Shown here piece by piece: positions 1,028 to 41,310 of a stretch of DNA of 64,000 bases; within the stretch, counting starts at the first letter, position 1, and each line of letters opens with the position of its first letter. The position numbers were made by a program, and so were the translations under genes. This DNA is from Promethearchaeota archaeon (GTDB lineage: Archaea > Asgardarchaeota > Lokiarchaeia > Sigyniarchaeales > SOKP01), in assembly GCA_019057795.1 (NCBI GenBank), contig JAHLWS010000078.1:64001-128000 (forward strand), written 5' to 3'. Under the pieces are notes generated by a model. The model was not told where the DNA came from. It did not search any database and saw only the letters and a program-made list of their open reading frames with translations.

Positions 1028-1065
1028 ATCTCCCTCCCCAGTGGGGCCCCCTCCTAAAAAATTCG
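1028..1065 (+). repeat. Site A copy 1 (GC-rich cassette-boundary repeat)
   Basis: ATCTCCCTCCCC..GTGGGGCCCCCTCCTAAAAAA-TTCG. Confidence 0.9.
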
Positions 1066-1103
1066 ATATAAGTTTTGTTCTAAATGTGATACCTATTATT
1101 ATT

Positions 1104-2081
1104 TTAAAATTTAAAATATTTAAGAACGATATCTTTCATCCAATTAAAATTTAAAGTTAATAAAGCGTTTGAAACATATTTTTTATTATCAAATCTAGTT
1201 TCAAATGGAATTCTTATTAAAGTTGTCAGATCTGATTGCTCTAAAAGTTTTATCCCTTCAGGTGGTTTGAGCATTATTTTTCCTTTGAAATTCTCTATTT
1301 TTAAGATATCTCTATGATTTTCTTTAAGATAAATATAAATATCTTTATAAATCATCTGAATATATTCTCTAAATTGAAGTGGAGTAATCTTATACTTTTT
1401 TCTGATTAAGTTATTATACAAATTTTTTTTCCTAAGATTCCCCACTTTTCCAAAAACTTCCATATTATACCATTTTCTAGCAGCAACAATATCCTTTCTC
1501 TGAATAAAAATACTAATGACATCATCTACTATTATTCTAAAATCTAAAGTAATATTGATGAATTGAAACCTTTCGGGCATTAAGCTTGATTTTAAGAATG
1601 CTGTTAATTCATAAATCTCTGAGAAATCTTTTGTAATTCTTGGTTGTTTTGATATATTAAAAACTACAAATCTATTTACATCCAATTTGAATTTGCTATT
1701 AATAAAAATATCAATATAATCTGACTCAAGATTAATAAGATTTGATAACTTAATAAAAAAGAAATTGTCAATTAACCCAAAATATTTAGGTTCTAATCCC
1801 AGATTGTCCGAAGATTGTTGATCATATATTTCTACGTAAAACAAATCACTTGGGATTTGAATTGGATTTTTTAAATATTGCTCAAGCAGATTTTCAATAA
1901 ACGTAATTTCACTCATAAAATTATTATATGTTCTTAGTCGATAATGTAGAGTTAAATCTTCATTTTTGCCATTATATCTAAAAAAAACTAATTTGAATAT
2001 CTCATCATATTGGTTAAATTTCTCCATTAAGTTAGAAACACATTCGAATTTATCAATCTCTCCTATACTCATATTAATCAA
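1104..2081 (-). CDS. Hypothetical protein
   Basis: 325-aa ORF, 2 nt downstream of the upstream gene. Confidence 0.7.
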   Translation of the reverse strand: MINMSIGEIDKFECVSNLMEKFNQYDEIFKLVFFRYNGKNEDLTLHYRLRTYNNFMSEITFIENLLEQYLKNPIQIPSDLFYVEIYDQQSSDNLGLEPKYFGLIDNFFFIKLSNLINLESDYIDIFINSKFKLDVNRFVVFNISKQPRITKDFSEIYELTAFLKSSLMPERFQFINITLDFRIIVDDVISIFIQRKDIVAARKWYNMEVFGKVGNLRKKNLYNNLIRKKYKITPLQFREYIQMIYKDIYIYLKENHRDILKIENFKGKIMLKPPEGIKLLEQSDLTTLIRIPFETRFDNKKYVSNALLTLNFNWMKDIVLKYFKF

Positions 2082-2083
2082 CC

Positions 2084-3466
2084 TTATGTTTGGGCAGTCT
2101 CAACTGAGTAATTATAAATATAATCAAAATTAGCTTTGAATTCTTCAATATTACTTAGAGTAATAATTTCTTCATTAGAATAATATAGATTATTAAGAAC
2201 ATCTCTATATTGTACCTTAAAATGAAAATTAAACACACCTCGACCATTCATAATAAATTGTCCTATTAACTTGTCTAACTTTATCTCAGGAGGTATATCT
2301 TGCTCAAATTCGATAGGATCTTTCTTGTCAATTTCAATTGGTATGAGGTTATTATTATCGTCTTTTACATCTATTTCAATATTATCTATTGAGATTTGAA
2401 AATCCTTTAGACATGAAATATTTATCTCAAATAAACCATTATTTGAAGAATACTGCCGATTTTTTACTTTCAATCTCACAATTGGTTTTAATATATCAAT
2501 TTTGAGTTGTTTTTCGCTGATTTTTGATAATTTACTATCATACACCGAAATAATTAATGATTCTAAATTTACTGAATTATCACCGCTTGGCACCTTCGAT
2601 ACTAATTCAAAAGGAATATAATATAGGTTAATATTTTCATTATATAATGAAATAATATTATTTGATTCATCAAAAGTATGAATAATATTGTAAAAACTCT
2701 TTATTTTCAAATTTGGGGTTAGTTTAATTTCAATCTTAGAAATTTTAGTAGAAAATAGTTCAATCCAGACCAAAATCTTTTCATTTGGAAGAGCCCATTT
2801 GTTACAATCAGCTTTAAAGTAATCTTCTGCTTTTATATCGATTTCTTCATGTTTCTTAGTATCGATCCCACTGTAATAACCATTATAACTTTCTAATAAA
2901 CAAGAAATGAGTTTCGCTCCAAAATCGGTAATCTCATAATATGAATATTCATTTGATTTCTCAACTTTTTTAAAATAATTTTGAATCATACCTCCTAGTT
3001 CTAACTTTTGTAAATGATTACTTAAAACACTCTTATTCATTTTAGTAATTTCGATGATTTTTGTGAAAGTATATGGACCCCTTTCCCTTAACAACGAAGA
3101 TAATGCAAATCTAAATTTATTCGATACCGCTTTCAGAGCCTCAGATTGATGTAATAAAAAAGATTCCTGCAAATCGATTACAAATCTCATACCAAATTTA
3201 GTTAATTCATAAAATGAGAATTCTCTTGTTTCTTCACTTTTTAATAAATAATTTTGTACAACTCCAGCTAATTCTAGTGTTTTCAAATGATTTAAAACAA
3301 GACCATTTTCAAGATCCAATATACTTCCTAGTTTTGAAAGAGATAAATTCTTATTTTTGTATAATTGAAAAATTAGATCAATCCGAATTTTATGTCCAAG
3401 AGCTTTTAATAATAATTCAAAATCTTCAGGTATATCCTTAATATACTCTTCAAGATCTTTTGACAT
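2084..3466 (-). CDS. Tandem ArsR-type winged-HTH protein with C-terminal beta-rich domain
   Basis: Two repeats: LKALGHKIR...LNHLKTLELAGVV...YELTKFG and LKAVSNKFR...LSNHLQKLELGGMI...YEITDFG. Confidence 0.8.
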   Translation of the reverse strand: MSKDLEEYIKDIPEDFELLLKALGHKIRIDLIFQLYKNKNLSLSKLGSILDLENGLVLNHLKTLELAGVVQNYLLKSEETREFSFYELTKFGMRFVIDLQESFLLHQSEALKAVSNKFRFALSSLLRERGPYTFTKIIEITKMNKSVLSNHLQKLELGGMIQNYFKKVEKSNEYSYYEITDFGAKLISCLLESYNGYYSGIDTKKHEEIDIKAEDYFKADCNKWALPNEKILVWIELFSTKISKIEIKLTPNLKIKSFYNIIHTFDESNNIISLYNENINLYYIPFELVSKVPSGDNSVNLESLIISVYDSKLSKISEKQLKIDILKPIVRLKVKNRQYSSNNGLFEINISCLKDFQISIDNIEIDVKDDNNNLIPIEIDKKDPIEFEQDIPPEIKLDKLIGQFIMNGRGVFNFHFKVQYRDVLNNLYYSNEEIITLSNIEEFKANFDYIYNYSVETAQT

Positions 3467-3546
3467 AGTTTAATTCATTTTATTTATTTAATAATAAATT
3501 ATATACCTAGGTATATAAAAATTAACCATTTTTAAATTTAACTTTT

Positions 3547-4038
3547 TCAAAAAATAATATTTCTGTGGATAAAAATTAAACAATGTTGATATATCTCATT
3601 CTCATCGTTATATATATAGACATTTAGCCTCTTTTCACTCATTAATCCCCTAGATACAGTGTAATTATAGTCATAAGGAATGTAAACAATCAACTTATTA
3701 GACTTTTCTTCAAAATATTTAGAATGTATTAATGAAGATAACTCAGTTATTACAGAATTGTTTTTTTCGGGGAATAATACAAATATATTAAAATCTGAAT
3801 TTTTCATTAATTTAACCATTTCAGTATAAATGTAAGCATTTCTATCTTTTTCTTTTAGTACATCCTCACTAGGTTCATGAATTACCTCATTTGCTAAGAA
3901 AGTGTTCATAAAACCTTTTTCTCTAAGGATTTTAACTAATCTATCTACAACAGGTTTGTTAATTGGATGATAAGATCCGAGTACTAAAATTTCAGTTTGG
4001 ATATGATTAATATTTAATCTTTTGAATTCTGACATCAT
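3547..4038 (-). CDS. Hypothetical protein, possible TIR/nucleoside deoxyribosyltransferase-like fold
   Basis: ILVLGSY...LREKGF..TFLA...SDFNIFV...SVITEL pattern; start moved to ATG 4038. Confidence 0.5.
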   Translation of the reverse strand: MMSEFKRLNINHIQTEILVLGSYHPINKPVVDRLVKILREKGFMNTFLANEVIHEPSEDVLKEKDRNAYIYTEMVKLMKNSDFNIFVLFPEKNNSVITELSSLIHSKYFEEKSNKLIVYIPYDYNYTVSRGLMSEKRLNVYIYNDENEIYQHCLIFIHRNIIF

Positions 4039-4391
4039 TAAATAATATTGTACTATAGCTAAATCGATTTTTATGAAATAATAATAATAATAAATCATTA
4101 ATATTTAAAACAAGATACATCTTGAGTTTAATAAGAGATAAATTATTATAATTTTTAAAAAAAGTTTAATTATCAGTTTCATTAACGATTTCTCTAACTA
4201 CTTGTAGAAATTTGTTTTTCTGGTTTTGCTCAAATTCTCAACATTGGAAACTATTTGTATTCTAAAAACGAATTTTGAGAAATATTGCGTGTCTTAAATC
4301 ACAATCTTCAATAATTTTGATATTGAATAATGCTCCTTATTCCTTTAACTAATTCTTTTAAATATTCTTATTATTTCTCGTTACAATATTC

Positions 4392-4430
4392 ATCTCCCTC
4401 CCCCGTGGTGCTCCCTCTTAAAAAAGTAGG
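4392..4430 (+). repeat. Site A copy 2
   Basis: ATCTCCCTCCCCCGTGGTGCTCCCTCTTAAAAAAGTAGG. Confidence 0.95.
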
Positions 4431-4540
4431 CTCTTAATTAAGTAATTTAAACATCCCTCAACTATAATGTTTCACCTGTCAACCCATCAATCAATTGAGC
4501 CCAGATTTCTAATTTCCTTCTTAAAAATTAGGTATTTAGT

Positions 4541-4762
4541 TTATAGTTTGTTATGTGGTTTAAAATCTGGAACTTGTATTTCTTCTCCACAATTTTTACA
4601 TACAACAGTAGGAATTATACCAGATCTTATCTCTCCATGCTGCATATTCTCTAATGAGGGTTTTCCCCAATTCTTTACCTTCTCTTTTGAAAATTCATAA
4701 GGAAATGTTTCTCCACATTTTAAACATTTAATATTATGTATTTCAGTAATTAACATCACCAA
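4541..4762 (-). CDS. Small zinc-ribbon protein
   Basis: CLKC...CKNC; only plausible gene between site A copies 2 and 3. Confidence 0.65.
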   Translation of the reverse strand: MVMLITEIHNIKCLKCGETFPYEFSKEKVKNWGKPSLENMQHGEIRSGIIPTVVCKNCGEEIQVPDFKPHNKL

Positions 4763-4842
4763 TATAAATAATTTAACTCATCTATCAAATAAATTCTTTA
4801 ATTTTTATTGTTATGGATTTTCTTTCTTTCTCTCTTTATTGA

Positions 4843-4882
4843 CTCCCTCCCCTCGATGCTGCCTCCTAAAAAAGTAGGGGAA
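4843..4882 (+). repeat. Site A copy 3
   Basis: CTCCCTCCCCTCGATGCTGCCTCCTAAAAAAGTAGGGG. Confidence 0.85.
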
Positions 4883-4901
4883 GGATTAAAAATTGCGGAA
4901 T

Positions 4902-5741
4902 TTACATTATGTTAAGACCTGCATCTTTACATCTCTCTTTTATCATTTCCAAAAATTCTTTTAAAATATCAAGATTTTTATCTGGTTCACTATAATGATA
5001 GGTTCTATCATTATGCTTAGAAATGTAGAGGGATTTACGATAAGCGTGATTTAGAATTAAATTCCATTTTTGGTATTCAATTAACATAGAATCCCCGTAT
5101 CCCGGTCTAAGCCTTCTATAATCCATTTTTAAGACCTTCTGAAGATTTTTCTCTCCAATTTCATCAAAAATCGTTTTGATATCAATATGAATATGTTCTA
5201 AATCATCTGAAGCTAATCTATTATAGAGATTCTTAAATTTTTCTTCTAAATAATTTTTTTGATAATCTCCAACATTATAAGTATGACTTGAAATAATTGT
5301 AATAGGATTAATAACTTCGCTCTTACCTAAATATCCAACCTGCTTCATGATCTTTTCTACAAATTTAATATATTCTATGGCTAAAGGTTTCTTAATAGTT
5401 TTTAAATCCAAATGTTCTAATCCATGTTGATACTTACTTCTATCTCTATGATATTTTTTCACGAATTCATTATATTTTGGTACCTTAGGATAAAAAAATT
5501 CTAAAATTCCTTTGTATAATTCCCTAAAATCCCGAGTTCTATATTTTTTATCATTCGTATATACTAAATCTTCCCTCTTCTTTTCTATTCCAATTAGCAT
5601 ACAAATTTTACTAAGTACATTATCTGCTATATAATGTCCTAATTCATATACTTCACTCATTTCATTTTTAGCTATAAATTTTCCAATCGCTAGCATTCTT
5701 TTAAGAGTATCAATGCGGTGCTTATTATCCTCAACAAACAT
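4902..5741 (-). CDS. HEPN-like domain protein
   Basis: Helical N-terminal domain with RSKYQH (Rx4H). Confidence 0.55.
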   Translation of the reverse strand: MFVEDNKHRIDTLKRMLAIGKFIAKNEMSEVYELGHYIADNVLSKICMLIGIEKKREDLVYTNDKKYRTRDFRELYKGILEFFYPKVPKYNEFVKKYHRDRSKYQHGLEHLDLKTIKKPLAIEYIKFVEKIMKQVGYLGKSEVINPITIISSHTYNVGDYQKNYLEEKFKNLYNRLASDDLEHIHIDIKTIFDEIGEKNLQKVLKMDYRRLRPGYGDSMLIEYQKWNLILNHAYRKSLYISKHNDRTYHYSEPDKNLDILKEFLEMIKERCKDAGLNIM

Positions 5742-6014
5742 AGTATCCTAAAATCATCAATTTTTGAAAGAAATCTATAATTCTATGATTTATAACACAA
5801 TTCAGTTATATAAATAAGAGAGGTTTAAGGATTAATAATTAATATGGCAATAACAACGAAAAATTTTGACTGTGGGTTCCTATTTCATGTTTTTATAATA
5901 TTATACTTAACAGATTCAAATTAAAATATGAATGTAATTAGGTTTTTTATTTAAATACTCAAGAAATTATGTAGTTTTAAATCATTATATCAATATATAC
6001 AAGTAAAAAAGGAA

Positions 6015-6224
6015 GTGATCGGTTTGAAACTAAAAGAAGAAGAAAGCTTTCATGGAGAATTAATTGAAACACCAGAAGAATTCATAGAGGATCTGTGCGA
6101 GAGACTCAATATCGCCTATAGCACACTAATGGAAGAAGATGATAAAATGAATCGGCTCGCTTATATCACCACTTTTCTAATCGCTTTCAAAGGAAGACTG
6201 AATCGAGTCTGCGAAAATATATAG
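6015..6224 (+). CDS. Small conserved acidic protein, repeat family B copy 1
   Basis: 69 aa; paralogues at 12239 and 42677, fragments at 31438 and 36375. Confidence 0.8.
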   Translation: MIGLKLKEEESFHGELIETPEEFIEDLCERLNIAYSTLMEEDDKMNRLAYITTFLIAFKGRLNRVCENI

Positions 6225-6288
6225 AAATTTATGTCTGCAATTTAATAATAATTATATAAAAAGATAGATTTTAAACGGTAGTAAAAAC

Positions 6289-6951
6289 ATGCCCGAGATA
6301 ATTATTCATAAAAAACCTGACCTGAAAGAAGTTAATGGTGAAGAATTTTATCATATACAAAGGTCTAATCTCCCAATCCGTTGGGAAATTGGGCAACAAA
6401 TTGAAGTAGGAAAGGAGTATAATTATTTTTATGAATATTTTTTTGATCACCGAATGGGAGTTAAGAATTCCGCAGGTGATTTTATTTCCTTAAACTATTT
6501 GTTGGAAAAAATTATTGCTACTCATGAAGGGAAAGAGGATCCAGATTCTGATATAGAATGTATTTATGGTTATGATCTATTAAAATCGCTAAAAGATGCT
6601 TCAGTTGCAATTAAGGAATATACAATGTTATTAAGAGAAATAATATCTGAGCAAGTAAGAGTTGAAAAATTCAGCAATTTGCCATCAAGATTAAAATGTA
6701 TCTGGGTTCTTCCCAATTTAGATTCAGTTAGGTATTGGAAACCAATAATTGAGGGACGGATTTTAAAATTAAGTTTGACAGGAAAAATCTTAAAAACGGA
6801 TGCTGCTTTCCTCAAAAATGACACATTTTCTTTAAATGAATTTAAAAAACAAGCTGAATTTTATTGGGCAGGTATTAAACAAGAAGGTTCTAATGCTGAG
6901 GAAATTCTTTTCTCTGGTACTATAGTTGTATTAGAAGAAATAAAAATTTAA
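6289..6951 (+). CDS. DUF2441-like protein (putative ADP-ribosyltransferase-like fold)
   Basis: FYHIQ...REIISEQVRVEKFSNLPSRLKCIWV...AEFYWAG...EEILFSG. Confidence 0.65.
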   Translation: MPEIIIHKKPDLKEVNGEEFYHIQRSNLPIRWEIGQQIEVGKEYNYFYEYFFDHRMGVKNSAGDFISLNYLLEKIIATHEGKEDPDSDIECIYGYDLLKSLKDASVAIKEYTMLLREIISEQVRVEKFSNLPSRLKCIWVLPNLDSVRYWKPIIEGRILKLSLTGKILKTDAAFLKNDTFSLNEFKKQAEFYWAGIKQEGSNAEEILFSGTIVVLEEIKI

Positions 6952-7091
6952 TTAATGCTACTCTCTGAAATGGTTTTGAAGTTCTCTTTATGAGCAAAAC
7001 GTTTGATTAATCTTTTTTTACTTGATGGGACAGTGAATTGCACATATTTATAGGTGTATCTATTTTTATTTGGTCTTGGATTTTCGCTCAT
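6948..7091 (-). pseudogene. Truncated ribbon-helix-helix (CopG-like) ORF
   Basis: Manual translation MSENPRPNKNRYTYKYVQFTVPSSKKRLIKRFAHKENFKTISESSIN*; breaks where the second RHH helix should be, abutting the DUF2441 stop. Confidence 0.4.
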
Positions 7092-7435
7092 TTTTCTTTT
7101 TCACCGTTTTAAGAGACACAAGGTTCGAGCCTTTTTAAATTTTGTCCCAATTTCAAAGGAAATTTGGATGGAAAGGTAAATTCAGAGTCATTTTCCCATG
7201 AAAATTTCATAAAAAATTCCCCCTCCCCTCAAATGAACGAAAAATTAAAATAAACAAGGGACTTAAAAAAACAGGAATAAAAGTTATTTTAAAGTTAAAT
7301 AAATATAAAATTACTTCTGATGGTTTGTGGCACATAAATAATGAAAAAGACCGTTCAGGACTTGAACTTTATATTAGAATTAAACACTTAGATAGATTGA
7401 GATACTAATCAAAAAGCATAATTGATCACAAATAA

Positions 7436-8428
7436 CTATTTTTTTCTTTCTGCTACAGTTTCTTCTTCTAAAGAATTACGTTTTGTTTTTTCGTCTCTTA
7501 TTACTTTTTTTACTTTTGCTCTTTCTTCAACAATTTTCTTGTCTTGTTGTTTTTCATCTTTTATTACTTTCTTCCTTTGTTTCTCTAGAATTTTTTTCAT
7601 ACTTTCAGTATATTTTTGTTGTCCCTTCTTTTGACTCAATACAGCATCTACAAGAAAAACTAATGAAGTACTAATTGATTCTGCATCTTCTAAACATTCT
7701 GTATCTGTTCTTCCATGCAACCCTTTACTTAAAGCATCGTGTAATGTTTTTAAAGGATTAAACTGTTCTGGCTTTAATATTAATGGTAATAGGTCTTTTA
7801 CGAGTGCTATTTTTTTTGTAGCAGTTTTAGTTTTTCTTACTTCTTCTAATGCTACTTGATATTTTTCTAATTCTTCCCCGCTCATTAAATCTGTAATCGA
7901 TTCTAGTAATTGTCCAATAATATCTTCGACAATTCTCCTATAATAAGCAAATGCTCCAATTCCATAACTGTGAAATTCACAGGTTTTACCTTTTTTATAA
8001 TATTCAGAATATCCCTTTAATATCTTTTTTAGAGTCTTTTCAATATTTATATCCCATGCTGGAAATTGTCCAACTTTTTCAATAGTTTTCAATCCCTTCC
8101 CCATTTTTATAGCAAAAAACCGATGAAATTTTTCACAATACGCACAAATATAATTTAGATTAACTAAATCATTTTCTTCGAGTGTTGGAGGAGGTGGTGG
8201 TTTGAATATTTTAATAACAACATCTTTTTCTTTTTTATGATTGTATTTATGAGTAAGTCTGAAAGTCCGAATTTCATTACAATTTGGACAGTACATATTT
8301 AAATTAACATCTGGCAAATCAACAATAGTAATAGGGAAAAGAAATGAATTTTTTCCAAAATCAAAATCAAATTTTTGATAGAGTGAATATTCCTCAAGAA
8401 ATTTTGCATCTGGCATGATTAATTTCAC
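7436..8428 (-). CDS. Zinc-finger plus DUF4145/HEPN-like protein
   Basis: CPNC...CAYC, then YYKKG...GIGAFAYYRRIVE...LSKGLH; charged tail. Confidence 0.65.
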   Translation of the reverse strand: MKLIMPDAKFLEEYSLYQKFDFDFGKNSFLFPITIVDLPDVNLNMYCPNCNEIRTFRLTHKYNHKKEKDVVIKIFKPPPPPTLEENDLVNLNYICAYCEKFHRFFAIKMGKGLKTIEKVGQFPAWDINIEKTLKKILKGYSEYYKKGKTCEFHSYGIGAFAYYRRIVEDIIGQLLESITDLMSGEELEKYQVALEEVRKTKTATKKIALVKDLLPLILKPEQFNPLKTLHDALSKGLHGRTDTECLEDAESISTSLVFLVDAVLSQKKGQQKYTESMKKILEKQRKKVIKDEKQQDKKIVEERAKVKKVIRDEKTKRNSLEEETVAERKK

Positions 8429-8568
8429 CTAGAATATCTTGAAATTATAATAAATAAAAAAGAATTCAAATATTTAAATAAATAGATAGCGAAATGGTAT
8501 AGGGAATTTTTAGAGTTATTAAAATTTAAAATCAAGGTCAGATAATTAATTTAATTCTCAATTTTTTT

Positions 8569-8817
8569 TTACATTTTTATTTTCTTATACTTAGATCTAT
8601 TAAAATCATTTTTTTTTGTTTTCTTTTCCTTCTTTTCTAAAATTTCTTCTTTCTTCGTCTGAACTTCTACTTTAGAAGATTCATCATTTTCTATTCCATC
8701 CTTTCTGGATTTAGGTTTATTGTCAATCTTCTCTTTTTTTAAGGGTTCCTGCATTGCTTCCTTTACTTTTTCTTTTTCCTTATCCTTCTTTCTTTCTAAT
8801 TCTTTTACTGGTGACAT
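8569..8817 (-). CDS. Small Lys/Glu-rich protein
   Basis: Probable start ATG 8817 (MSPVKELERKK), just downstream of the site A promoter arm. Confidence 0.5.
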   Translation of the reverse strand: MSPVKELERKKDKEKEKVKEAMQEPLKKEKIDNKPKSRKDGIENDESSKVEVQTKKEEILEKKEKKTKKNDFNRSKYKKIKM

Positions 8818-8857
8818 TATTACTATCTTTTCTTGATATTTTTTAATTAAATTCCCT

Positions 8858-8955
8858 CTTAACCTAAAATACACACAACAGAAATATAAGACTTTTCCCA
8901 TTTTCCTTAATAATTTGCATTTCCCGCCTCTTGTTGCCCCCTCCTAAAAATGTAG
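8858..8955 (+). repeat. Site A copy 4 (long form with promoter arm, diverged)
   Basis: CTTAACCTAAAATACACACAACAGAAATATAAGACTTTTCC...TTGTTGCCCCCTCCTAAAAATGTAG. Confidence 0.8.
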
Positions 8956-8994
8956 TTTTTTTCTCTTTATTTGCAGATTCAAGGTGTAGAACTA

Positions 8995-9702: not shown

Positions 9703-9720
9703 ATTTCTATCGCCTTCATT

Positions 9721-10275: not shown

Positions 10276-10440
10276 TTCTACCCTCTTTATTAAATGTGTT
10301 ATCTAATGTTATATAAAATGAATAATAAATAAATATTTTTAGTAGGTATTGTTAGACTTTAATAAAGAAATAGAAAAAAATTTTAACTATTTATAGCTTA
10401 TCAACATGAAATTGGTTATATTAAGTATAAATTTTTTATG

Positions 10441-10478
10441 ATCTCCCTCCCCCGTGTTGCTCCCTCCTAAAAAATCGG
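10441..10478 (+). repeat. Site A copy 5
   Basis: ATCTCCCTCCCCCGTGTTGCTCCCTCCTAAAAAATCGG. Confidence 0.95.
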
Positions 10479-10542
10479 ACATTACTCTGATTTTATATTT
10501 TTAATTTAATCTAACATTATGAAAAAATAATGAGTATTAAAG

Positions 10543-10623: not shown

Positions 10624-10708
10624 ATATTTATTATTAATATTATAAAATAAATTTAGCCTAATAAATATATACATTATAGTAAAAATAATAAAAGGCTATC
10701 TTACATAT

Positions 10709-10746: not shown

Positions 10747-10817
10747 TGAATATTGAATATAATTCAACAGATATTTAAAAAAGGAATTTATATCTAATAC
10801 AAAGGCTTAAGCAAAAA

Positions 10818-27215: not shown

Positions 27216-27224
27216 TTAAATAAG

Positions 27225-33252: not shown

Positions 33253-33601
33253 TAGAACTATCTATAAGTTAAATGATTTTTAACAATGAAATAACAATTA
33301 TCTAATTCCCAAATGTTTTTTGATTTTTTTAATTTCTTTATCATTTTAATATAATGCTTCTATTACAACATATTGAAATTCTTCTTCCTCACTTTTAGGT
33401 GGAATCCTTTTATGCTTTTGAAAATATTTTACCAAAATAAATCAATAACTAAATATCATCAAATTCTTTAATTAAATTCATAAAGTTCACCTTATTCCTT
33501 CAAGTTTTTAAATTTTAAGTTAAGAAATTAATCTAAAGGAAAATTAGTAAAAAAATCTTTTAGAATGAACTTTATTCTAATTTTTTACCTTTCTCTTGTT
33601 T

Positions 33602-33643
33602 ATCTCCCTCCCCTGTGGTTCCCCCTCAATAATCGGGGGAAAA
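33602..33643 (+). repeat. Site A copy 13
   Basis: ATCTCCCTCCCCTGTGGTTCCCCCTCAATAATCGGGGGAAAA. Confidence 0.85.
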
Positions 33644-33659
33644 ATTCTTTTTAAAAAAA

Positions 33660-34430
33660 TTAGAGAAGTTTTCTCATTTCTCTAGTAAATATTCTACAAA
33701 TCTTAATCGTCTCTAATATATCATCCCATTTTTCAAAATTAGCTCTAATATGATTACTATGAGCTAAATTATTTCTTAATTTTTTTAATTTCTTTAGGTA
33801 ATATCGAATATCCCCTTCATCCTTTTCACAAACTAAGCAGAAATCATTGAATTTTTCAATTTTTTTGATTATTTCGATTTTATCATCAAGAAATGAACAA
33901 TGTAGTATATCAATATCTAAATCTTGGGCTTTTAAAGATGCAAATCTTTCTTTAATTTTATCAAAAATCTCCTTATCCAATAAATTCTGCCAATTTGAAA
34001 CATATTTTATTATAAAATCAATACAAACTACTTCAAAATTCATAATCAATCCAAAAAGCAATAAACGACCTGGTCCTTTTTGTAAATCTCCAATAGTAAC
34101 TATTTTTTCGATGTTTTCATTTGAATTAAAGAAATATTTGGTTTTATGATCATCCATAAACTTGTTGAGGAGCGTCGTGATTGGTAGGTTATCTGGAATA
34201 ATTTCATCGAGATTTATGTTTTTTATTATACCCTTATTTGTTAATACTTTTTTTATCATCTTTCCTTTTCTTCTAATTCCAAGTAAATCATAGTTCTTAT
34301 TATGCATAAGTTGAAGAGCATCTTCTCTGGATTGTGAATCACATTCCCAACAGGTTAGATCAGATGCGATATGAGCAACTGTAATGTTCTCTTCAAATGA
34401 TTCAATGAAATCATAAAAATGAGGTCTCAT
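33660..34430 (-). CDS. CBS-like plus HEPN (Swt1-like) protein
   Basis: ITVAHIA...ALQLM..KNYDLLG...IVTIGDL, then LRNNLAH. Confidence 0.65.
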   Translation of the reverse strand: MRPHFYDFIESFEENITVAHIASDLTCWECDSQSREDALQLMHNKNYDLLGIRRKGKMIKKVLTNKGIIKNINLDEIIPDNLPITTLLNKFMDDHKTKYFFNSNENIEKIVTIGDLQKGPGRLLLFGLIMNFEVVCIDFIIKYVSNWQNLLDKEIFDKIKERFASLKAQDLDIDILHCSFLDDKIEIIKKIEKFNDFCLVCEKDEGDIRYYLKKLKKLRNNLAHSNHIRANFEKWDDILETIKICRIFTREMRKLL

Positions 34431-34631
34431 ATATTAACACATTTTCTTTCCATAACAAAATATTGCATAAATCAAATAAGATGAGTAATCAATATTTTTA
34501 TATAATGAATGATGATTTTTTAATTGAATATCAATTAATAATCATTTGCAAACATCTAGCGCAATTTTAAGCTTTATTTATAATTTTAAAAACCAATATA
34601 GAGTAATCGATTAAAGAGTCGAGATGATTTA

Positions 34632-36359
34632 ATGACATCAATGAAGACAAATACAATTATTTATTTATATAATATGGGTGTAGACAAGTCAATAAAGAAA
34701 GAAATTGATTCAGACATAGAAAATTTCATTTACAATAGCATTAATAAATATCTTGGTAATCGTGAAGAAGTTGAAATTGAAGAAGACCCATATCAATTAA
34801 ATGGGGCAATATTAAATTGGCTTAGGCGGGCAAAAATTGATGAAAGACAAGTAAATCCTTTTTGTAAAAAGTTGCGGGACGCTCTTAGCACAAGATCAAT
34901 TGAAGCTCAGAGAAATCTTATTTTATATTTACGGTCTCATAAAAAAAGTGAGCCTTTTTTTTATATTATTCACACTTCTGAGAGACTTGAAGTTGTTGAT
35001 GAAGATTTTAAAAAAATTATTGAAGTAGGATTAGGTCCTGGAAAAATTCTAAGAGTTCTACAATTTTCTAGATTAAGTATTGATTCTATACAATTAAGTT
35101 ATAGGGAAAAATATAAATCAAATTTACTAATTAATTTATTTCATCTCACTTCTGACAGATATAAATCGACGGGCAGTATCAAGTTAAAGGGATCTTTTGG
35201 AAATGACTTAGATTTTATAATTGATTTGACTCCATCTAACTTTCTAAAGCATTATAATTCAAATAATATTAAATTTGAAGAAGATAATCAAATTGATATC
35301 TTTGATAGATATTCACTGAAGTTAAGGGAAATTAAGTTTGGCTCAGTTTATATCAAACCAACTAAAAATAAAATTGATAAATTCATAAAAACCATCAAAG
35401 ACGAATTCGATGAACACGAAGAGTTAATAGAAAAATTTCTTTTAGATTTCCAATCAATAAAACTGAAGTACGGAATTGAACAAAATATGTCTTTAACTAA
35501 GTTCTTAGATCCAAACGGATTTCCAGATCGGGAATCAATTAGATTCGAAGAAGGGAGGGAATTTGTTAAATGTTTTATTAATGATACGCTTGATTGCAGT
35601 ATTAAAAAACCAGTAGATCCTTGGGGTGAATTTTTTGTAATCGATAATTTAATTAATTTTTCACAGCATTATAGCAAAAATATTGCACGAGAAATAATTA
35701 TCGGGTCTTTAAGGAATGTTAGATTTATAGATATACCATTTTCTAAGGAAAAATTAAAAATTGGGCAATATTATTGGCATAACGATTTTTTAATCCATAG
35801 TAATTTAAAAAAATTACTTGAGTTTGTTCAAGACGAATACGATAAATCGGATAGCGACAGAAGACGAAAATTACTCTTGGTAGCTATGTTAGACATTCTC
35901 AAAAATGCTGTAGACAACATTTGTATGAGGAAATTTTCAAAAGAGATAATTTTTTGGTTAATAAAAGGAAAAGAGGATCTTTCAAGAGATATAGTTGAAG
36001 ATAATATTTTCGAATTTAAAAGGGGGGATATTTTAGATACATCAACTTTTACACTTCCACAAAGAATAACGAAAATCTCGAATGGTTTAAGACCTAATTT
36101 GAATAATAATGGATTGTCTATTTTAATTGTAGGTTATGATGAAGATAGAAATCAGATAACACCGATTAAATTTAGTCACTATAGAGAGGAAGTACGCCAA
36201 GAAATATATGATGGAATAAAAGGTGAATTATCAAATCAAGAGTTAATAATTAATATGTTCTTAATCAATACAGAAGATACAGATAAGGGACTAATCATCA
36301 TTTTTGCCGCAGATACAAATTATAGTGATAAAATAGACTTAAATAATCTTTTTAGTTAA
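34632..36359 (+). CDS. Protein with C-terminal Schlafen/AlbA_2-like domain
   Basis: EDNIFEFK...NNNGLSILIVGYDED. Confidence 0.55.
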   Translation: MTSMKTNTIIYLYNMGVDKSIKKEIDSDIENFIYNSINKYLGNREEVEIEEDPYQLNGAILNWLRRAKIDERQVNPFCKKLRDALSTRSIEAQRNLILYLRSHKKSEPFFYIIHTSERLEVVDEDFKKIIEVGLGPGKILRVLQFSRLSIDSIQLSYREKYKSNLLINLFHLTSDRYKSTGSIKLKGSFGNDLDFIIDLTPSNFLKHYNSNNIKFEEDNQIDIFDRYSLKLREIKFGSVYIKPTKNKIDKFIKTIKDEFDEHEELIEKFLLDFQSIKLKYGIEQNMSLTKFLDPNGFPDRESIRFEEGREFVKCFINDTLDCSIKKPVDPWGEFFVIDNLINFSQHYSKNIAREIIIGSLRNVRFIDIPFSKEKLKIGQYYWHNDFLIHSNLKKLLEFVQDEYDKSDSDRRRKLLLVAMLDILKNAVDNICMRKFSKEIIFWLIKGKEDLSRDIVEDNIFEFKRGDILDTSTFTLPQRITKISNGLRPNLNNNGLSILIVGYDEDRNQITPIKFSHYREEVRQEIYDGIKGELSNQELIINMFLINTEDTDKGLIIIFAADTNYSDKIDLNNLFS

Positions 36360-36374
36360 TTTTATCTTAATAAA

Positions 36375-36542
36375 GATCTGTGCGAAAGGGTCAATATCGC
36401 ATATAGTACCATGATGGAAGAAGACAATAAAATGAATCAGCTCGCATATATCACCACTTTTCTAATCGCTTTCAAGGGAAGGCTTAATCGAGTCTGCGAA
36501 AATATTTAGAAATTACTTTACTTCTTGATTAAAAACTAAAAA
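36375..36542 (+). pseudogene. Family B 5'-truncated copy
   Basis: DLCERVNIAYSTMMEEDNKMNQLAYITTFLIAFKGRLNRVCENI*. Confidence 0.9.
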
Positions 36543-36773
36543 AATAAAATCGAATTTAATCTTGAAATCATTGAGATAGTTAACATATATCCATCTTTTG
36601 ATTAATAATATTTTAGAAATGAATTGAATTCAAGGAAAAGACAACAAATATGGGAGTAAGAGATCACCTTTTTCTATTCAATCTAGTATTTCGATTACTT
36701 TTATTATCTAATTACTAGAATTATTTTTATTAAATTTCTAATTATAGATTTATAGACTTAGCGAGGAGTTTTT

Positions 36774-37859
36774 ATGACAAGGAAAAATATATCAAGAGAA
36801 CATCTTCAGAATTTGCTTTATACTTTTGAAAGAGATGAAAATTTAAATTTCTTCTTAATGATTTACACATACCTAAACATTAGTTTTATAACGTTAATTT
36901 TTATTGGTATAGGGTTATATGAAATATCATCAATAATAATTGTTCTTGTCGTTTTATTTGTAATTATTTCGTGTGCTTTTACAAGAAAGCTTTCATTACA
37001 TTTAGACAAAAAGAAGAATAAAAAGATAACTCGCAAATTAAAACAATATTTAATTACCGGAAAAAGGGAAGAGGATAATAAATTTGAAGATATTCTTGAT
37101 AAGTTAAAATTAACTGAACGACAATATAAAATAAGTCAATTAACATCTTTTTCTTATGTACTTTTAATCATCTCCATAGAGTTTTTAATACTCTTTCTTT
37201 TCCAGAAAATCCTTGTTTTAGCAAACCCTTTAAATTATAATATAGTTATTATTGGAACTTTTTTACTTATAGAATTATCAATTAATCTTCTATTGCTACT
37301 TTTTCAAACACTAAGATACATGAACTTTAAAGGTATCCATCAGTTAAGGGATTTTTTAGAAAAGATCATAACCAAAGAATTAACTAGAATTGAAAATAAA
37401 ATCGAAAAAATCATGGATTTAAAATTAAGAGAGTTTAAGTTTAAAAGAAAGCAATTACTAAGATGTCTTCAAAAATGGAGTGATCTTTATCTTGGATCGT
37501 ATTTTGTTGGATTAAGAGAACAACTATTAATATCAGATTATAAAAATTTAACATACAATATTAGAGATGAGGTCTATTATTATACATTATTTAACGATCT
37601 TAAATTTAAGATTGAAGAAAGCCATATTTTTCATTCATTAAATAGAGATGAAAGCAAAAAAAAAGAAACAGAAGATCCTATCCACAACATAATTGAACTC
37701 AATATTAAAAGGTTGAACACGAGCATTCAAAGTAGACTCTTAATAAAAAATGAAAGAAGAACTAAGATTAGAATGTCTCAAACTTGGATTGCAATAATTA
37801 GTATAACATTATCCATTATATTTTCTCTTTCAAGACTCCCTTCTCTGTGGGTTTTCTAA
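36774..37859 (+). CDS. Multi-pass membrane protein
   Basis: About 5 hydrophobic segments. Confidence 0.7.
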   Translation: MTRKNISREHLQNLLYTFERDENLNFFLMIYTYLNISFITLIFIGIGLYEISSIIIVLVVLFVIISCAFTRKLSLHLDKKKNKKITRKLKQYLITGKREEDNKFEDILDKLKLTERQYKISQLTSFSYVLLIISIEFLILFLFQKILVLANPLNYNIVIIGTFLLIELSINLLLLLFQTLRYMNFKGIHQLRDFLEKIITKELTRIENKIEKIMDLKLREFKFKRKQLLRCLQKWSDLYLGSYFVGLREQLLISDYKNLTYNIRDEVYYYTLFNDLKFKIEESHIFHSLNRDESKKKETEDPIHNIIELNIKRLNTSIQSRLLIKNERRTKIRMSQTWIAIISITLSIIFSLSRLPSLWVF

Positions 37860-38081
37860 CTTATTGATAAGTTCATTTTACCAATCTTACTTTTTTTATA
37901 TGAATTAATTTAAAAATACATCAAATATCGAAGGAAAAATTAATTAAGGAATTTTATCTAATTTACTTTCGATAAATTTTCTGTCATTTCCACCAACTTT
38001 TTCAAAGGTTTCAATAATTAATCTTTTTGTATTTTTCTTTCTAATTCATGAAACCGACTTTTCCAAATATAATCTTTATTT

Positions 38082-38744
38082 TTATAGTATTCCTTTCCTA
38101 GTACCAACCAATAATTTTTTTTTATCAATCAAATCCTTAATTTTTTCATAATTTACGATTAACGCCTTCAATAAATCATAAGTATATCGAATTTTATTAA
38201 GATCTCCTAATTTTTCGATCATTTCTTCCAATTTATAAACACAATTCTCTAAAATTACTTGATTAGCAGATATAATAGATAAATATAAAGAACGAGCAAG
38301 AATTTTAGTAACGAAATTATAGTTTTCTTTTTCAAAGAAAAAATCTGTCATCTCTAAATATCCTTCTGCAGCTTTAGAAGCAATTTTAGGATTTTTTTCT
38401 TCTGATTCCTGCCAAACAATGTCAGCAAATTTAGCTTTCAATAATGAATTTCTTGTGTTTGAAAATTTTGTTGTAAAGTAATTTAAATCTTTTTCTTCAA
38501 AATCAAATTCTTTCCCAACTATTGGAATTAATTTGTAGTCATCATTCCTAATTTCTAAGGCATGAACCAATGCTTCTTTTTGAATCGATCTAAAAAGAAT
38601 ATATTTCTTGTTTTCTTCATATTTCCTCATTAAAAGATTACATAAGTTTAACCAATCCAGTTGATTAAAATGATTAAATTTACCCTCTTCAATCATAATT
38701 CTTATTTCATTTGGTTCTTTATTATTCAAATCTTCTAAGCTCAT
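38082..38744 (-). CDS. Helical protein, possibly a truncated DUF4209-type N-terminal region
   Basis: LLKAKFADIVWQ...AAEGYL...LARSLYLS. Confidence 0.5.
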   Translation of the reverse strand: MSLEDLNNKEPNEIRIMIEEGKFNHFNQLDWLNLCNLLMRKYEENKKYILFRSIQKEALVHALEIRNDDYKLIPIVGKEFDFEEKDLNYFTTKFSNTRNSLLKAKFADIVWQESEEKNPKIASKAAEGYLEMTDFFFEKENYNFVTKILARSLYLSIISANQVILENCVYKLEEMIEKLGDLNKIRYTYDLLKALIVNYEKIKDLIDKKKLLVGTRKGIL

Positions 38745-38771
38745 TAATTACACCTCAAAATATTTTTATTT

Positions 38772-38875
38772 TTGTCTTACCCTATAATAAACACAACAGG
38801 AATATATTTTTTTCCTATTTCTCTCCTATATTTATTATCTGCCTCCCCCGTGGTACTTCTTCCTAAAAAAGTAGG
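38772..38875 (+). repeat. Site A copy 14 (long form)
   Basis: TTGTCTTACCCTATAATAAACACAACAGGAATATATTTTTTTCC...ATCTGCCTCCCCCGTGGTACTTCTTCCTAAAAAAGTAGG. Confidence 0.9.
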
Positions 38876-38893
38876 TGTGAAATGATCAGTGAA

Positions 38894-40003
38894 TCATTTT
38901 TTGATTATCAATATTGTTCTTAATAGCAAGATCGTATAACTATAACCCATTTTGGCTTCCCATTCGAGGACATCTTTCTCATTACCGTGCCCAGAATCCC
39001 TAGTGTTCCTCACGGTTCCAACAATATTTATCCCCGATAATAAAAGTTTATCTATACCATTCATCACATTAGAATCGGTACCTCTAAATATTTTTTTTGA
39101 TTTCTGTCTAACTTTTTGGATTAATTTTTCAAGGCTTAGTTTACTATTTTCTTCTTTATCCCCCAAGAGATTTTTATAGAAATTTTCTAATGTTTTACAG
39201 CAATAGAGCAAAACATCGTTCCACTCACCAGTTAATTTATGCTCGTAAGCTTTGTCAACATTTTCCGTGACTTTTGGATATTTTTCAAGCTCTTTGTAAA
39301 CCCTTCTTTCTTGAAATTCCTCGACACTATTTCCTATGATTCTGAGTTTCCCAGCATCACAAGAAATCCAATTTTTGCCCATCAGTCGAAAGATTTCGTT
39401 TAAAAAATCATCAAATTCTTGAGATGTGAGGATATTTTTAACAGAATTCTCATTTAAAAAAAAGTTATTAAAATTGAAGACCTTACGAAAAGATACAGCA
39501 ACATCTCCAGATCTCCAACCTTTTCCAGGATTTTTTCTGAAAAATTCCTCCTTTTCTTCGATTTCTCTTAAACCTGCGTTTTCCCAACCTCCATAATCAT
39601 CTTGATAACTTATATTTTTATACATTTCACCTATCCAACAATTCAATTCTTTGAAAAAATTATTAACTTCGATGTGATTCTTCTTTTTTGTATAACCTAT
39701 TCTTTCAAAAAGGTTTAACAAATGATCATTAATTTCTTTTCTTACTATAGGATTATCTGATCTATAATGATATTCTTTATAATTTTCAAACCAATCTAAA
39801 AACAAAGGATAACCTTTTCTGTGACATTCACTAATTATTCCACTAAATGGAAAATTATAAGGGTCCATACTAAGCAAATTTTGTGCCTGGTATGAATTGT
39901 AAGGATAAAACAATACTAAATTGTAAAGTTTAGTAACACATTCATTTACATTGATATCTTCATATTTTATTGGTAATGATTGACCATTATTAGCCAATTT
40001 CAC
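38894..40003 (-). CDS. Abortive-infection (Abi_C/HEPN-like C-terminus) protein
   Basis: CCKTLENFYK...VRNTRDSGHG. Confidence 0.65.
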   Translation of the reverse strand: MKLANNGQSLPIKYEDINVNECVTKLYNLVLFYPYNSYQAQNLLSMDPYNFPFSGIISECHRKGYPLFLDWFENYKEYHYRSDNPIVRKEINDHLLNLFERIGYTKKKNHIEVNNFFKELNCWIGEMYKNISYQDDYGGWENAGLREIEEKEEFFRKNPGKGWRSGDVAVSFRKVFNFNNFFLNENSVKNILTSQEFDDFLNEIFRLMGKNWISCDAGKLRIIGNSVEEFQERRVYKELEKYPKVTENVDKAYEHKLTGEWNDVLLYCCKTLENFYKNLLGDKEENSKLSLEKLIQKVRQKSKKIFRGTDSNVMNGIDKLLLSGINIVGTVRNTRDSGHGNEKDVLEWEAKMGYSYTILLLRTILIIKK

Positions 40004-40308
40004 TTTTACTTCACTTACTTCGACAAAAAAATAGTTTTATTATTCAATAATCTTTGGATAAAGATCAAAAGAAAAAAACGATTGGTCTTAAGCAATTTAT
40101 TAATTTTTAAGATAAGGCAAAATATTAGTCGAAATTTAAATAGGTTTCTCCTTGAAAAAGACTAGGCTAAAAAGGAGGAAATTTCATTCTCTTAGAAAAA
40201 AATCTGAATTTCATAATCATCACTAATAGTTGCCGATTTTCTTTCTATAAGTTTATCACAAATTTTAAGAAACCAACTCAATTTTAATCTCCTCTTTATT
40301 ATAAAATA

Positions 40309-41217
40309 TTAGGATTTAAATTTCTTGTATAAAACTTCAAACATAGGTTTTATAGTATTATACCAACTTTCATCTATTATAGTGCTCTTCATTTCTTTAT
40401 TAATATGGATACAGTTTCTAAAATCTCGTAAATGGGATTGGACTAATTTCCATCGCATTTTTTCTCCAAAGATATCTTTTTGTATTGCAATATCTATATT
40501 TGCAGAGAGTCCTCTCTTTTTAGGAATATTATTAATTTCAAAGTATCTATCTAAAAGAAATTCTAAAATTGATCCCATCATTACCATACAAAATTTAAAT
40601 CTATGTTCATATTCAAATTTTAGCAGATCTCTTATGTTGTTTATAAAGATTTCCTTTTCATTATCATCTTTTAAAAATTTATCAAAGCATCCCAGTGAGA
40701 TTTCAAATTCTTCATTTCTTAATTTTGATTTATATTCTCTATAAACTTCATCCTCTATAAAATTCAATTCTATTGGAATAGCATTTAAATCTCTTTTAAT
40801 TTTTGAAATAATTTTTCTTAGAATATCTATTACGCCATCCAAAATTTTGTAAAATTCTGACTGAGGAATGAAATAAGTAATTGGAGTTCCCCAAATATTT
40901 GTTGTGTCATATCTAGAAATTTTATTTTTAAAAAAACTCACTACTTCTTCAATAGGGTTTATAAAATCTATAACTTTTTCGTATTCTCGTTCCCCGAACC
41001 AAGCAGATGCTTGTTTATGTAATTTCACATTCAATTTCCTATATTGTGGTAAAGCTTCAATTTCCTTATATCCATAAAGCTCCCAATGAGCCCACTCAAA
41101 AACACTTCTGAGGTTATGAACTTTTGCAATTTCTATCAAATTTTTTAAATTATTTGTAATTTGGTATTTATCTTCAATGTTTTTTTCTATTAATTCAATA
41201 ACTTTTTTAGTTTTCAA
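40309..41217 (-). CDS. AbiTii-like N-terminal domain plus HEPN-like C-terminal domain
   Basis: EWAHWELYGY...LPQYR; GSILEFLL...RDFRNCIH. Confidence 0.7.
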   Translation of the reverse strand: MKTKKVIELIEKNIEDKYQITNNLKNLIEIAKVHNLRSVFEWAHWELYGYKEIEALPQYRKLNVKLHKQASAWFGEREYEKVIDFINPIEEVVSFFKNKISRYDTTNIWGTPITYFIPQSEFYKILDGVIDILRKIISKIKRDLNAIPIELNFIEDEVYREYKSKLRNEEFEISLGCFDKFLKDDNEKEIFINNIRDLLKFEYEHRFKFCMVMMGSILEFLLDRYFEINNIPKKRGLSANIDIAIQKDIFGEKMRWKLVQSHLRDFRNCIHINKEMKSTIIDESWYNTIKPMFEVLYKKFKS

Positions 41218-41236
41218 ATTATCACTTCATATCTTT

Positions 41237-41310
41237 ATCTTATTTTAAAATTAAACAAATATAAATATCTCTTTTTTCCCACTTTCCTCGATATTTGCTC
41301 TCTCCCTCTC
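41237..41310 (+). repeat. Degenerate site A (promoter arm only)
   Basis: TATCTTATTTTAAAATTAAACAAATATAAATATCTCTTTTTTCCC...CTCTCCCTC, same spacing to the downstream start as the long copies. Confidence 0.5.

Follow-up and report, generated by a model that had tools for sequence, protein, structure and literature searches.

A same-strand array of short GC-rich sites upstream of tRNA-Phe in a Lokiarchaeial genome, probably built from small mobile gene cassettes

What is the short GC-rich sequence that recurs, always in the same orientation, between the genes of a hypervariable island in a Lokiarchaeial genome? The island lies in a 64,000-nucleotide stretch of a Promethearchaeota archaeon (assembly GCA_019057795.1, contig JAHLWS010000078.1, positions 64,001 to 128,000), hereafter the window. 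We label the genome G000 and the contig C78, so that the window is G000:C78:64001-128000; negative coordinates denote positions left of the window on contig C78, G labels denote genomes, and L labels denote loci, mostly from metagenomes, the metagenome loci being those among the matches listed (at least 120). An earlier note, made from the letters of this DNA, had proposed an integron-like system that accumulates and shuffles defence cassettes at a site other than attC. Our analysis indicates that the motif is probably the att site of small mobile units of one Lokiarchaeial family, and that the island reflects accretion and shuffling of cassettes, most of them integrase-less.

Because the DNA has a G+C content of 25-30%, a C-rich word of this kind is conspicuous. 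The 23-base core CCCTCCCCCGTGGTGCCCCCTCC, allowing up to 3 mismatches, gave 10 matches in the window, all on the plus strand, and none in 100 dinucleotide shuffles. A profile made from the clear copies recovered all 14 places listed in the earlier note, 12 as full sites and two as half-sites that retain the right half only (8932 and 22436), and the two remnants suspected near 7218 and 41300 proved real but degenerate. Three extra copies left of the window (-5076, -3854 and -3218) bring the array on contig C78 to 17 copies within 44 kb, every one on the plus strand, in agreement with the uniform orientation first described. At five sites, a minus-strand gene has its end 17-51 nt to the right, as had also been noticed. 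The array and its sites in the window are as follows:

1..41320, plus strand: cassette array, running 5.1 kb further left up to a creatininase gene; units of 0.27-6.7 kb
1025..1067, plus strand: full site (profile, E 2e-10)
4390..4430, plus strand: full site (profile), bounding a 448-bp cassette together with the site at 4838
4838..4879, plus strand: site with diverged core (profile, E 0.008)
7217..7235, plus strand: degenerate left-half remnant straight after a copy of element C, a 35-nt repeat described below (sequence inspection)
8932..8955, plus strand: half-site, right half of core only; left boundary of the cassette kept site-to-site in L102
10437..10479, plus strand: full site (profile)
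10705..10748, plus strand: full site (profile)
15138..15181, plus strand: site with long (~60 nt) left arm and a TAATTAC spacer variant (profile)
19458..19500, plus strand: site with long left arm (profile)
20196..20229, plus strand: site with long left arm; homology to L080 begins at the site
22436..22462, plus strand: half-site, right half of core only (profile)
25857..25901, plus strand: site; left boundary of the DUF6602 cassette, kept site-to-site in L074 and L099
26931..26974, plus strand: site; L099 is 100% identical up to ...CCTCCTAA, then changes to the cassette of window -3854
33599..33640, plus strand: site with variant right side and CCCCC/GGGGG pairing (profile)
38833..38877, plus strand: site, core altered at 5 positions; L054 matches at 97% identity from TCCTAAAAAAG rightwards and is unrelated on the left
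41298..41320, plus strand: degenerate last site, long left arm kept, core eroded (sequence inspection)

The half-sites (right halves at 8932 and 22436, left halves at 7217 and G000:C43:8486) all break near the central GTGGTG of the core, and both left-half copies run on as ...CCCTCCCC followed by TC. These breaks may mark a second exchange point or a recurrent deletion.

Profile search found no further copy on the remainder of the 203-kb contig C78, hence none right of tRNA-Phe, where the earlier note had seen none. Outside the array, the 4.95-Mb genome has about 10 copies: a same-strand mini-cluster of four on contig C5, amid restriction-modification, AAA_15/21, PIN, Schlafen and HerA genes, five or six singletons on contigs C4, C34, C65, C67 and C80, and a left-half site on C43. 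With 21 of about 27 copies in two clusters, and one strand per cluster, the motif does not show the genome-wide scatter in both orientations typical of a repetitive extragenic palindrome (REP) or a miniature inverted-repeat transposable element (MITE).

Do the sites bound units that move? Aligned with contig C78 at the nucleotide level, the metagenome loci yielded whole cassettes that match from site to site between unrelated flanks, and further loci in which homology starts or ends at a site:

L102: window 8920-10473, whole cassette site-to-site, 90% identity, flanks unrelated
L074: window 25860-26966, whole cassette site-to-site, 92% identity, flanks unrelated
L144: window -3869..-3176, whole cassette site-to-site, 94% identity, flanks unrelated
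L080: window 4392-4878, whole cassette site-to-site, 87% identity, flanks unrelated
L054: homology begins at 38833, 97% identity
L113: homology begins at -3213
L139: homology stops at -3883
L100: homology stops at -3808
L130: homology stops at 20196

L099, part of the 51-kb contig Ga0209977_10000023, displays a rearrangement at the level of strains. It is 100% identical to window 25552-26964, next joins the cassette of window -3876..-3177 (97% identity) through a 55-nt overlap that is the site, and then continues with a small unit called B, tRNA-Phe and the right flank; two cassettes adjacent in L099 thus stand 30 kb apart in the window genome. Since cassette order differs in relatives and homology often starts or stops at the site, the motif is most likely a recombination site. 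Across all comparisons, 36% of 228 internal homology ends fell within 50 nt of a site, compared with 3.4% of random positions; the fairer control, breakpoints per intergenic region, gave 0.78 with the motif and 0.24 without it (3.2x). Among 179 distinct breakpoints, 56 lay at the motif, 6 at element C only and 117 at neither. Judged from these alignments, the motif is the main recognisable boundary, though not the sole one, and the coincidence of strain and species breakpoints with it, on which the earlier note had made its proposal depend, is borne out.

The junctions also locate the probable crossover. In the alignments, the match to the left partner continues through ...GCCCCCTCCTAA and then switches. 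Copy pairs that have only the left flank in common differ at a mean of 2.0 core positions, compared with 3.3 for random or unrelated pairs, and carry the same core variants (for example GTGATG) although their right sides are unrelated. Pairs that have only the right flank in common share spacer and right arm but not the core, L054 and this genome showing 5 core differences, and three different right partners of one left cassette part right after CCTCCT. Core variants therefore travel with the left cassette and the right arm with the right one, placing the crossover within TCC-TAAAAAA. Its most likely position is inside the A-rich spacer of 7 nt that separates the arms CCTCC and GTAGG, or at the border of that spacer, where the cut of a tyrosine recombinase would be expected.

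Such junctions could in principle arise with no dedicated recombinase at all, if the motif and its left arm formed a terminator/promoter module and homologous recombination between 45-110-nt repeats deleted, duplicated and swapped genes. The long copies are suggestive here: minus-strand genes that are unrelated to one another have the TATA-like box of these copies 20-45 nt upstream, and the upstream gene is followed by a T6 run; many other copies, however, lack the promoter arm or are placed after plus-strand genes. The cognate integrase is missing from this genome, further island repeats mark breakpoints too (B, element C and a 153-bp repeat at 96%), and 63 breakpoints fall in motif-less intergenic regions. 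Yet in the informative junctions core variants stay on the left and divergence starts at one place, rather than crossovers being spread through the core, the longest identical stretch. The sites keep one orientation whatever the orientation of the genes: among the open reading frames (ORFs) of 76 complete cassettes, 77 share the strand of the motif and 60 do not. The same motif sequence recurs in genera whose surrounding DNA differs throughout, and it co-localises with one integrase clade in G104 and G134. We consider homologous recombination between repeats an unlikely sole explanation of the array, although it may have contributed.

What kind of site is this? It spans about 45 bases, is GC-rich, and consists of the core ATCTCCCTCCCCCGTGGTGCCCCCTCC followed by TAAAAAA and GTAGG. 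Across 139 distinct copies, the 27-nt ATCTCCCTCCCCCGTGGTGCCCCCTCC is 70-100% conserved per position, the following TAAAAAA 70-100% and GTAGGT 50-70%; a subset of copies has an additional ~60 nt leftward, where the minus strand shows a TATA-like box. The core forms a perfect mirror repeat of pyrimidines rather than a palindrome, and its opposite strand carries the G-runs GG, G5, G5 and G3. The sole inverted element is CCTCC ... GTAGG flanking the A-rich 7-nt spacer: 47% of copies, as against 18% of controls, contain a complement of 4 nt or more, and one copy has the compensatory pair CCTG...CAGG. A Xer/dif-type site has two inverted arms of ~11 bp around a spacer of 6-8 bp; here, inverted arms of only 5 bp flank the conserved 7-nt TAAAAAA. 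As a derivative of a tRNA 3' end (GGGGGCACCA, minus strand), the motif matches no tRNA here, and the singletons belong to no Rfam family.

The mirror repeat, with its opposite-strand G-runs, could instead point to a purely regulatory or structural role, as an operator or upstream activating sequence of a defence regulon, a G-quadruplex or triplex, or a small RNA gene, with the breakpoints overlapping it only by virtue of its intergenic position. Strong conservation, the association with defence genes and an ArsR-type regulator within the array would fit such a role. The orientation of the copies nevertheless tracks the array and not the neighbouring genes, and copies lie upstream of, downstream of or between genes of either strand. 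Motif-bearing intergenic regions have the several-fold breakpoint excess over motif-less ones given above, and the junctions are sharp to within a few bases; no Rfam family matches the site or the window, and the folds do not surpass those of shuffles. This explanation appears very improbable.

The earlier claim that the site is not an attC holds. Neither GTTRRRY nor RYYYAAC cores occur within -100/+60 of any of the 14 sites, and single-strand folding of eight 121-nt site regions gave z from 0.03 to 0.92, not better than shuffles; the site is therefore not an attC. Least probable of all is a site acting as single-stranded DNA, whether an IntI-type folded site or a hairpin-guided HUH system (IS200/IS605 or REP/RAYT-like): a 4-6-bp hairpin (CCTA...TAGG, or the compensatory pair) does straddle the crossover, orientation is uniform and the genome has one Y1 transposase, but roughly half of the copies have no such hairpin, the candidate integrase reaches 50 bits where the IntI cutoff is 265, no Y1 gene lies near any array, and the copies are clustered, not dispersed.

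We then asked how the locus looks in relatives, where tRNA-Phe and the B unit serve as landmarks:

42598..42882, plus strand: B unit, small gene of ~66 aa, at the ancestral spot just upstream of tRNA-Phe
42998..43162, plus strand: tRNA-Phe (GAA), interrupted by three introns; anchors the array on the right at a fixed place

The tRNA-Phe was recognised by eye; ARAGORN and Rfam gathering scans returned no RNA gene in the window, so that tRNA-Phe escapes both, and an Rfam E-value scan of 40-45 kb gave noise only. Its orientation is the same as that of the sites in 5 of 5 occupied loci (this genome, L099, L080, G004 and G014), and the motif is unlike the tRNA-Phe sequence, so it is not part of the tRNA gene end. 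The left flank is conserved across the genus (EMG1, radical-SAM and DNA-alkylation-repair genes and, in some species, LRR, GNAT and creatininase genes), and the conserved right flank restarts at window 54240. Between these flanks, relatives hold very different contents:

G018: B gene and tRNA-Phe abut the left flank (empty locus)
G008: creatininase to tRNA-Phe 0.8 kb (empty locus)
G056, G057 and G016: a few kb upstream of tRNA-Phe, without the motif
G004 and G014: short array, one site directly upstream of B and tRNA-Phe
This genome: creatininase to tRNA-Phe 48 kb

The existence of empty, short and filled versions indicates that the island is an insertion hotspot filling by accretion. B is a ~290-bp repeat whose encoded protein has no Pfam match; it is present even in the empty G018 locus and is multiplied within arrays, with extra copies here at 5935-6230 and 12162-12455 and partial ones at 31438-31533 and 36373-36545. 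In G008, the 3' tail of B (GATCGAAAACTAAAAAGATTTTTATGA) flanks a one-gene insert as a direct repeat, and this tail may be another att-like sequence.

Beyond this genome, 13 of 41 other species of the genus have 1-3 copies. At the level of the class, the motif was present in 55 of 161 genomes, all from one Lokiarchaeial family (54 of 134), and in 0 of 27 genomes of other families. A scan of all prokaryotes, with one genome per species, found it only in Promethearchaeota (Loki-type) metagenome-assembled genomes (MAGs) and in two bins that bear the labels Hermod- and Hodarchaeota. Different genera often have exactly the same 22-mer between unrelated flanks. In metagenomes, at least 120 loci carry the motif; they come from marine-sediment projects, among them LAZR01, the Loki's Castle assembly. 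The profile finds 178 copies among the metagenome loci, and in 41 of 41 multi-copy loci every copy lies on one strand.

Neighbouring sites of the array enclose 0 to 7 ORFs. The 76 complete cassettes from this genome and the metagenome loci have a median length of 1.3 kb (range 0.27-6.7 kb); 35 contain one ORF and 21 contain two. The earlier note had described the genes as mostly of toxin or anti-phage type. Such types are indeed found in the array, with Hypoth_Ymh and Swt1-type HEPN, ArsR-type HTH, DUF2441, DUF6602, DUF7380, PycTM, PIN, FRG, TPR and AbiTii domains, but the word "mostly" goes too far, as the majority of array ORFs have no Pfam match. In total, 137 cassette proteins match 82 Pfam families, led by OLD/AriA/GajA-like AAA_15/21 ATPases, Schlafen-AlbA_2, DUF6602, GNAT, PIN, PycTM and the DUF433/DUF5615 pair; Ras GTPases, cold-shock proteins, hydrolases and a dehydrogenase also occur. 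The cargo is thus not all defence and comprises defence, toxin-antitoxin and miscellaneous genes. Among proteins beside the motif in 120 metagenome loci, no common family stood out: the largest cluster, of Ras-type GTPases, covered only 9 loci, and there was no recombinase cluster.

The 268-bp cassette between the sites at 10437 and 10705 contains solely a tRNA-like sequence (10551-10623, minus strand) with a perfect T arm. It is not called by ARAGORN, has no second copy in the genome and is 81% conserved in metagenome loci L034 and L131. Elsewhere in the array, a 153-bp repeat with 96% identity (16196-16348 and 27067-27219) stands directly upstream of two unrelated plus-strand genes (16363-17148 and 27225-29819), and may be a common promoter or leader, or the outcome of recent conversion.

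Which enzyme might act at the site? Pfam searches found no integrase in or beside the array (no PF00589 match), and four tyrosine recombinases are encoded elsewhere in this genome. A metagenome ORF search placed a homolog of two of these between two motif copies in L064 (L064:5161-6084), co-transcribed with a 182-aa protein (L064:6081-6629) that has an N-terminal ribbon-helix-helix domain (NikA/CopG-like); the paralog of this partner on contig C82 of our genome additionally has a winged helix. Integrases with 84% identity or more to this one occur in other genera, where they too are flanked by motif copies and are encoded on the strand opposite to the motif. Integrase, partner and upstream region form a common 1.75-kb module, present in L064, G104:C168, G134:C122 and, twice, G134:C129, and situated between motif copies in loci L064, L220, L223 and L228. 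In L064, G104:C168 and G134:C122 the 35-nt element C closes the module; in G134:C129 a diverged version of the element does so. Three of the five motif copies of G104 and four of the six of G134 are on integrase contigs, and of the genomes that encode an integrase with 80% identity or more, 6 of 6 carry the motif, compared with 55 of 161 overall; more distant integrase clades (70% identity or less) have no motif nearby.

The integrase is Xer-like, with XerA 5hxy as best structure match and 81 bits for PF00589. It reaches 90 bits on the XerA model (cutoff 220), indicating an element-borne paralog and not the host XerA; its 50 bits on the integron-integrase model TIGR02249 (cutoff 265) cover the common catalytic part only. 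Whether the L064-type clade is the enzyme of the array we regard as about evenly balanced on the basis of these sequence associations. The suggestion that the recombinase lies outside the window is accordingly plausible, given that no integrase is found in or beside the array and that an integrase clade is linked to the motif in relatives. Within the array, the following traces of the module were recognised:

6963..7121, minus strand: partner gene stub, first 53 codons, 66-68% identity, the integrase itself gone
7052..7207, plus strand: conserved upstream region of the module, ending in element C at 7173-7207 (sequence comparison)
21339..21373, plus strand: second window copy of element C (sequence comparison)

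No trace of the integrase was found beside the partner stub in this genome. The C82-type integrase of this genome does not follow the motif within the genus, being present in 4 of 41 genomes, 2 of them with the motif. Also set aside were a serine recombinase, the Y1 transposase and Cas1, which are encoded elsewhere in the genome and never near an array, and a 350-aa ORF by the array end (41354-42406), which has no Pfam match and whose counterpart differs in other loci.

Element C (AAGGTAAATTCAGAGTCTGATTTCAATGAAAATTC) includes the palindrome TCAGA-G-TCTGA and is also found at C78:58882, just before the first site. There are 60 copies in the metagenome loci, 59 of them in the orientation of the motif. 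The element often stands directly after a site, at the cassette start, and in some cassettes it is read in frame as the N-terminus (MVNSESDFNEN...), both in a recurrent 34-aa ORF and in S24-like peptidase-domain proteins with variable C-termini. For the last 60 codons of the C82 integrase gene (G000:C82:124003-124914), a second copy, 80% identical, stands 2.3 kb downstream (121511-121690), which could be a tandem-element remnant or an att site inside the gene.

Several observations weigh against the motif being the att site of mobile units. No intact cognate integrase was found in this genome, whose best matches to the candidate are 54% (L147:8001-8915) and 41% identical and have no motif nearby, and 49 of the 55 motif-bearing genomes, which are fragmented MAGs, lack a close integrase. 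Homology between modules ends at element C and at the AATTCACAGAG end, not at the motif, and the integrase module could be a separate element, a rider merely lodging in arrays. The empty loci of G008 and G018 show no recognisable motif as first target (profile, E up to 1). Two thirds of the homology breakpoints lie away from the motif. Finally, the inverted arms measure 5 bp only and the core is a mirror repeat, unlike the long inverted repeat typical of tyrosine-recombinase sites.

Taken with the site-bounded cassettes, the strain rearrangement and the empty and filled loci, which support an accumulating and shuffling system as first proposed, the att-site reading suggests the following course. 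Units would integrate successively, in one orientation, upstream of tRNA-Phe, presumably by site-specific catalysis and by way of circular intermediates. Every integration would leave a copy of the site at each unit boundary, and the island would grow by accretion as a result. Most units would have shrunk until they held no integrase and just one or two cargo genes under promoters of their own; since such reduced units keep the site, they could still be deleted, moved, or exchanged between strains and species. Strand exchange would take place in, or at the edge of, the 7-nt spacer between CCTCC and GTAGG, and the likeliest enzyme would be the Xer-like tyrosine integrase with its ribbon-helix-helix partner, carried on some units in relatives. 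As the array holds only a stub of the partner, and the two integrase paralogs elsewhere in the genome are distant, the array may be served in trans or may now be frozen.

How does the array relate to known cassette systems? The archaeal integrons reported to date, those of Asgard archaea included, rely on canonical attC and IntI (Ghaly et al. 2022, PMC9668308, a study that also covers clusters of attC sites lacking integron integrases, CALINs), attC sites being imperfect palindromes of 57-141 bp with R''/R' cores (RYYYAAC...GTTRRRY) that fold as single strands. As in integrons and CALINs, same-oriented sites bound cassettes of mostly one or two genes (here at the short median length given above), the cargo is highly diverse, with many genes for toxin-antitoxin systems, defence, acetyltransferases and unknown functions, cassette order varies between strains with boundaries at the site, and arrays without an adjacent integrase occur. 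The crossover likewise falls at the right edge of the conserved site, so that the last bases of the site come from the next cassette. Unlike in integrons, the site has no long imperfect palindrome, no GTTRRRY/RYYYAAC cores and no single-strand fold, an intI-attI-Pc platform is absent here, and the candidate integrase is Xer-like, lacks the IntI signature and rides on a cassette-like unit. Cassette genes here face both ways, seemingly with their own promoters, whereas those of integrons are mostly promoterless and co-oriented. As we see it, "integron-like" describes a likeness of function, not membership.

Accretion of elements at one att site offers a second comparison. The accretion of cis-mobilizable elements and integrative and conjugative elements (CIME-ICE) in streptococci yields a tandem element array at one att site. 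Tandem re-use of att by tyrosine-recombinase elements is likewise known from arrays of archaeal integrative mobile genetic elements (Krupovic et al. 2019, PMC6563490) and from the tycheposon islands at tRNA genes in Prochlorococcus (Hackl et al., 10.1101/2020.12.28.424599). The present array resembles these in that direct att repeats separate the units, with same-strand sites at the boundaries, the hotspot adjoins a tRNA gene, relatives have empty (G008 and G018) and filled versions of the locus, and integrase-bearing and integrase-less units with the same att carry defence cargo. It differs in that its att forms no part of the tRNA gene, since the array lies upstream of tRNA-Phe beyond the B gene; in that the empty site has no single att copy (profile, loci L268 and L269, E up to 1); in that no unit in this genome keeps an integrase; and in having 17 or more sites and units as short as 0.27-1.3 kb, so that its units outnumber those of the arrays on record and are far below them in size.

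Xer-dependent modules form a third group, including the integrative mobile elements exploiting Xer (IMEX) and the pdif modules of Acinetobacter plasmids, which are small gene modules between sites that alternate in orientation. Common to these and the array are a candidate enzyme closest to archaeal XerA, what look like two short inverted arms around a 7-nt spacer, and small bounded modules. Here, by contrast with pdif, all sites are direct; the arms are only 5 bp long with a long C-rich mirror repeat on one side, and the enzyme is a separate element-borne paralog. Full-text literature searches returned no paper containing the motif, and keyword searches no description of such arrays in Asgard archaea. 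New, in all probability, are the site and a probable new integrase clade, while the kind of system, a site-specific cassette or accretion array of the tyrosine-recombinase type, is probably a known one. More tentatively, and with somewhat less than an even chance in our estimation, the array may represent an independent functional analogue of the integron in Lokiarchaeia, with a double-stranded, dif-like GC-rich site, an Xer-derived cassette-borne integrase and a ribbon-helix-helix helper. If so, single-gene defence and toxin cassettes with their own promoters would pass from strain to strain, and also across species and genera, in the archaeal lineage that is closest to eukaryotes.

Gene gain and exchange in Asgard archaea are little understood, and the classical integron is the only cassette system reported in them (PMC9668308). 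The array would be a second one, with a different site, confined to one Lokiarchaeial family and widespread in marine-sediment metagenomes, in which defence and toxin genes are stockpiled at a fixed chromosomal hotspot. Being short and easy to search for, the motif can mark hypervariable islands in MAGs that are fragmented, and the catalogue of cassette genes, about half of them without a known domain, supplies candidates for new archaeal immune systems. To our knowledge, Lokiarchaeia currently have no genetic tools, and the candidate integrase and site may make a possible one.

Two further variable spots lie near the array. Right of tRNA-Phe, window 43340-54240 is a second, motif-less insertion with a LAGLIDADG gene, two PD-(D/E)XK genes, a Shedu-like gene and a gene for an ATPase of 945 aa; among the relatives compared, the right flank restarts ~0.2-3 kb past the tRNA, and G018 retains a LAGLIDADG-like gene in between. 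Another spot lies 8 kb left of the array (G000:C78:50880-51988, equivalent to L021:6880-7988), beside a tRNA at L021:6990-7061. At this position, G017 has a motif copy, a copy of element C and a small gene, and L137 has a C82-type integrase with its partner.

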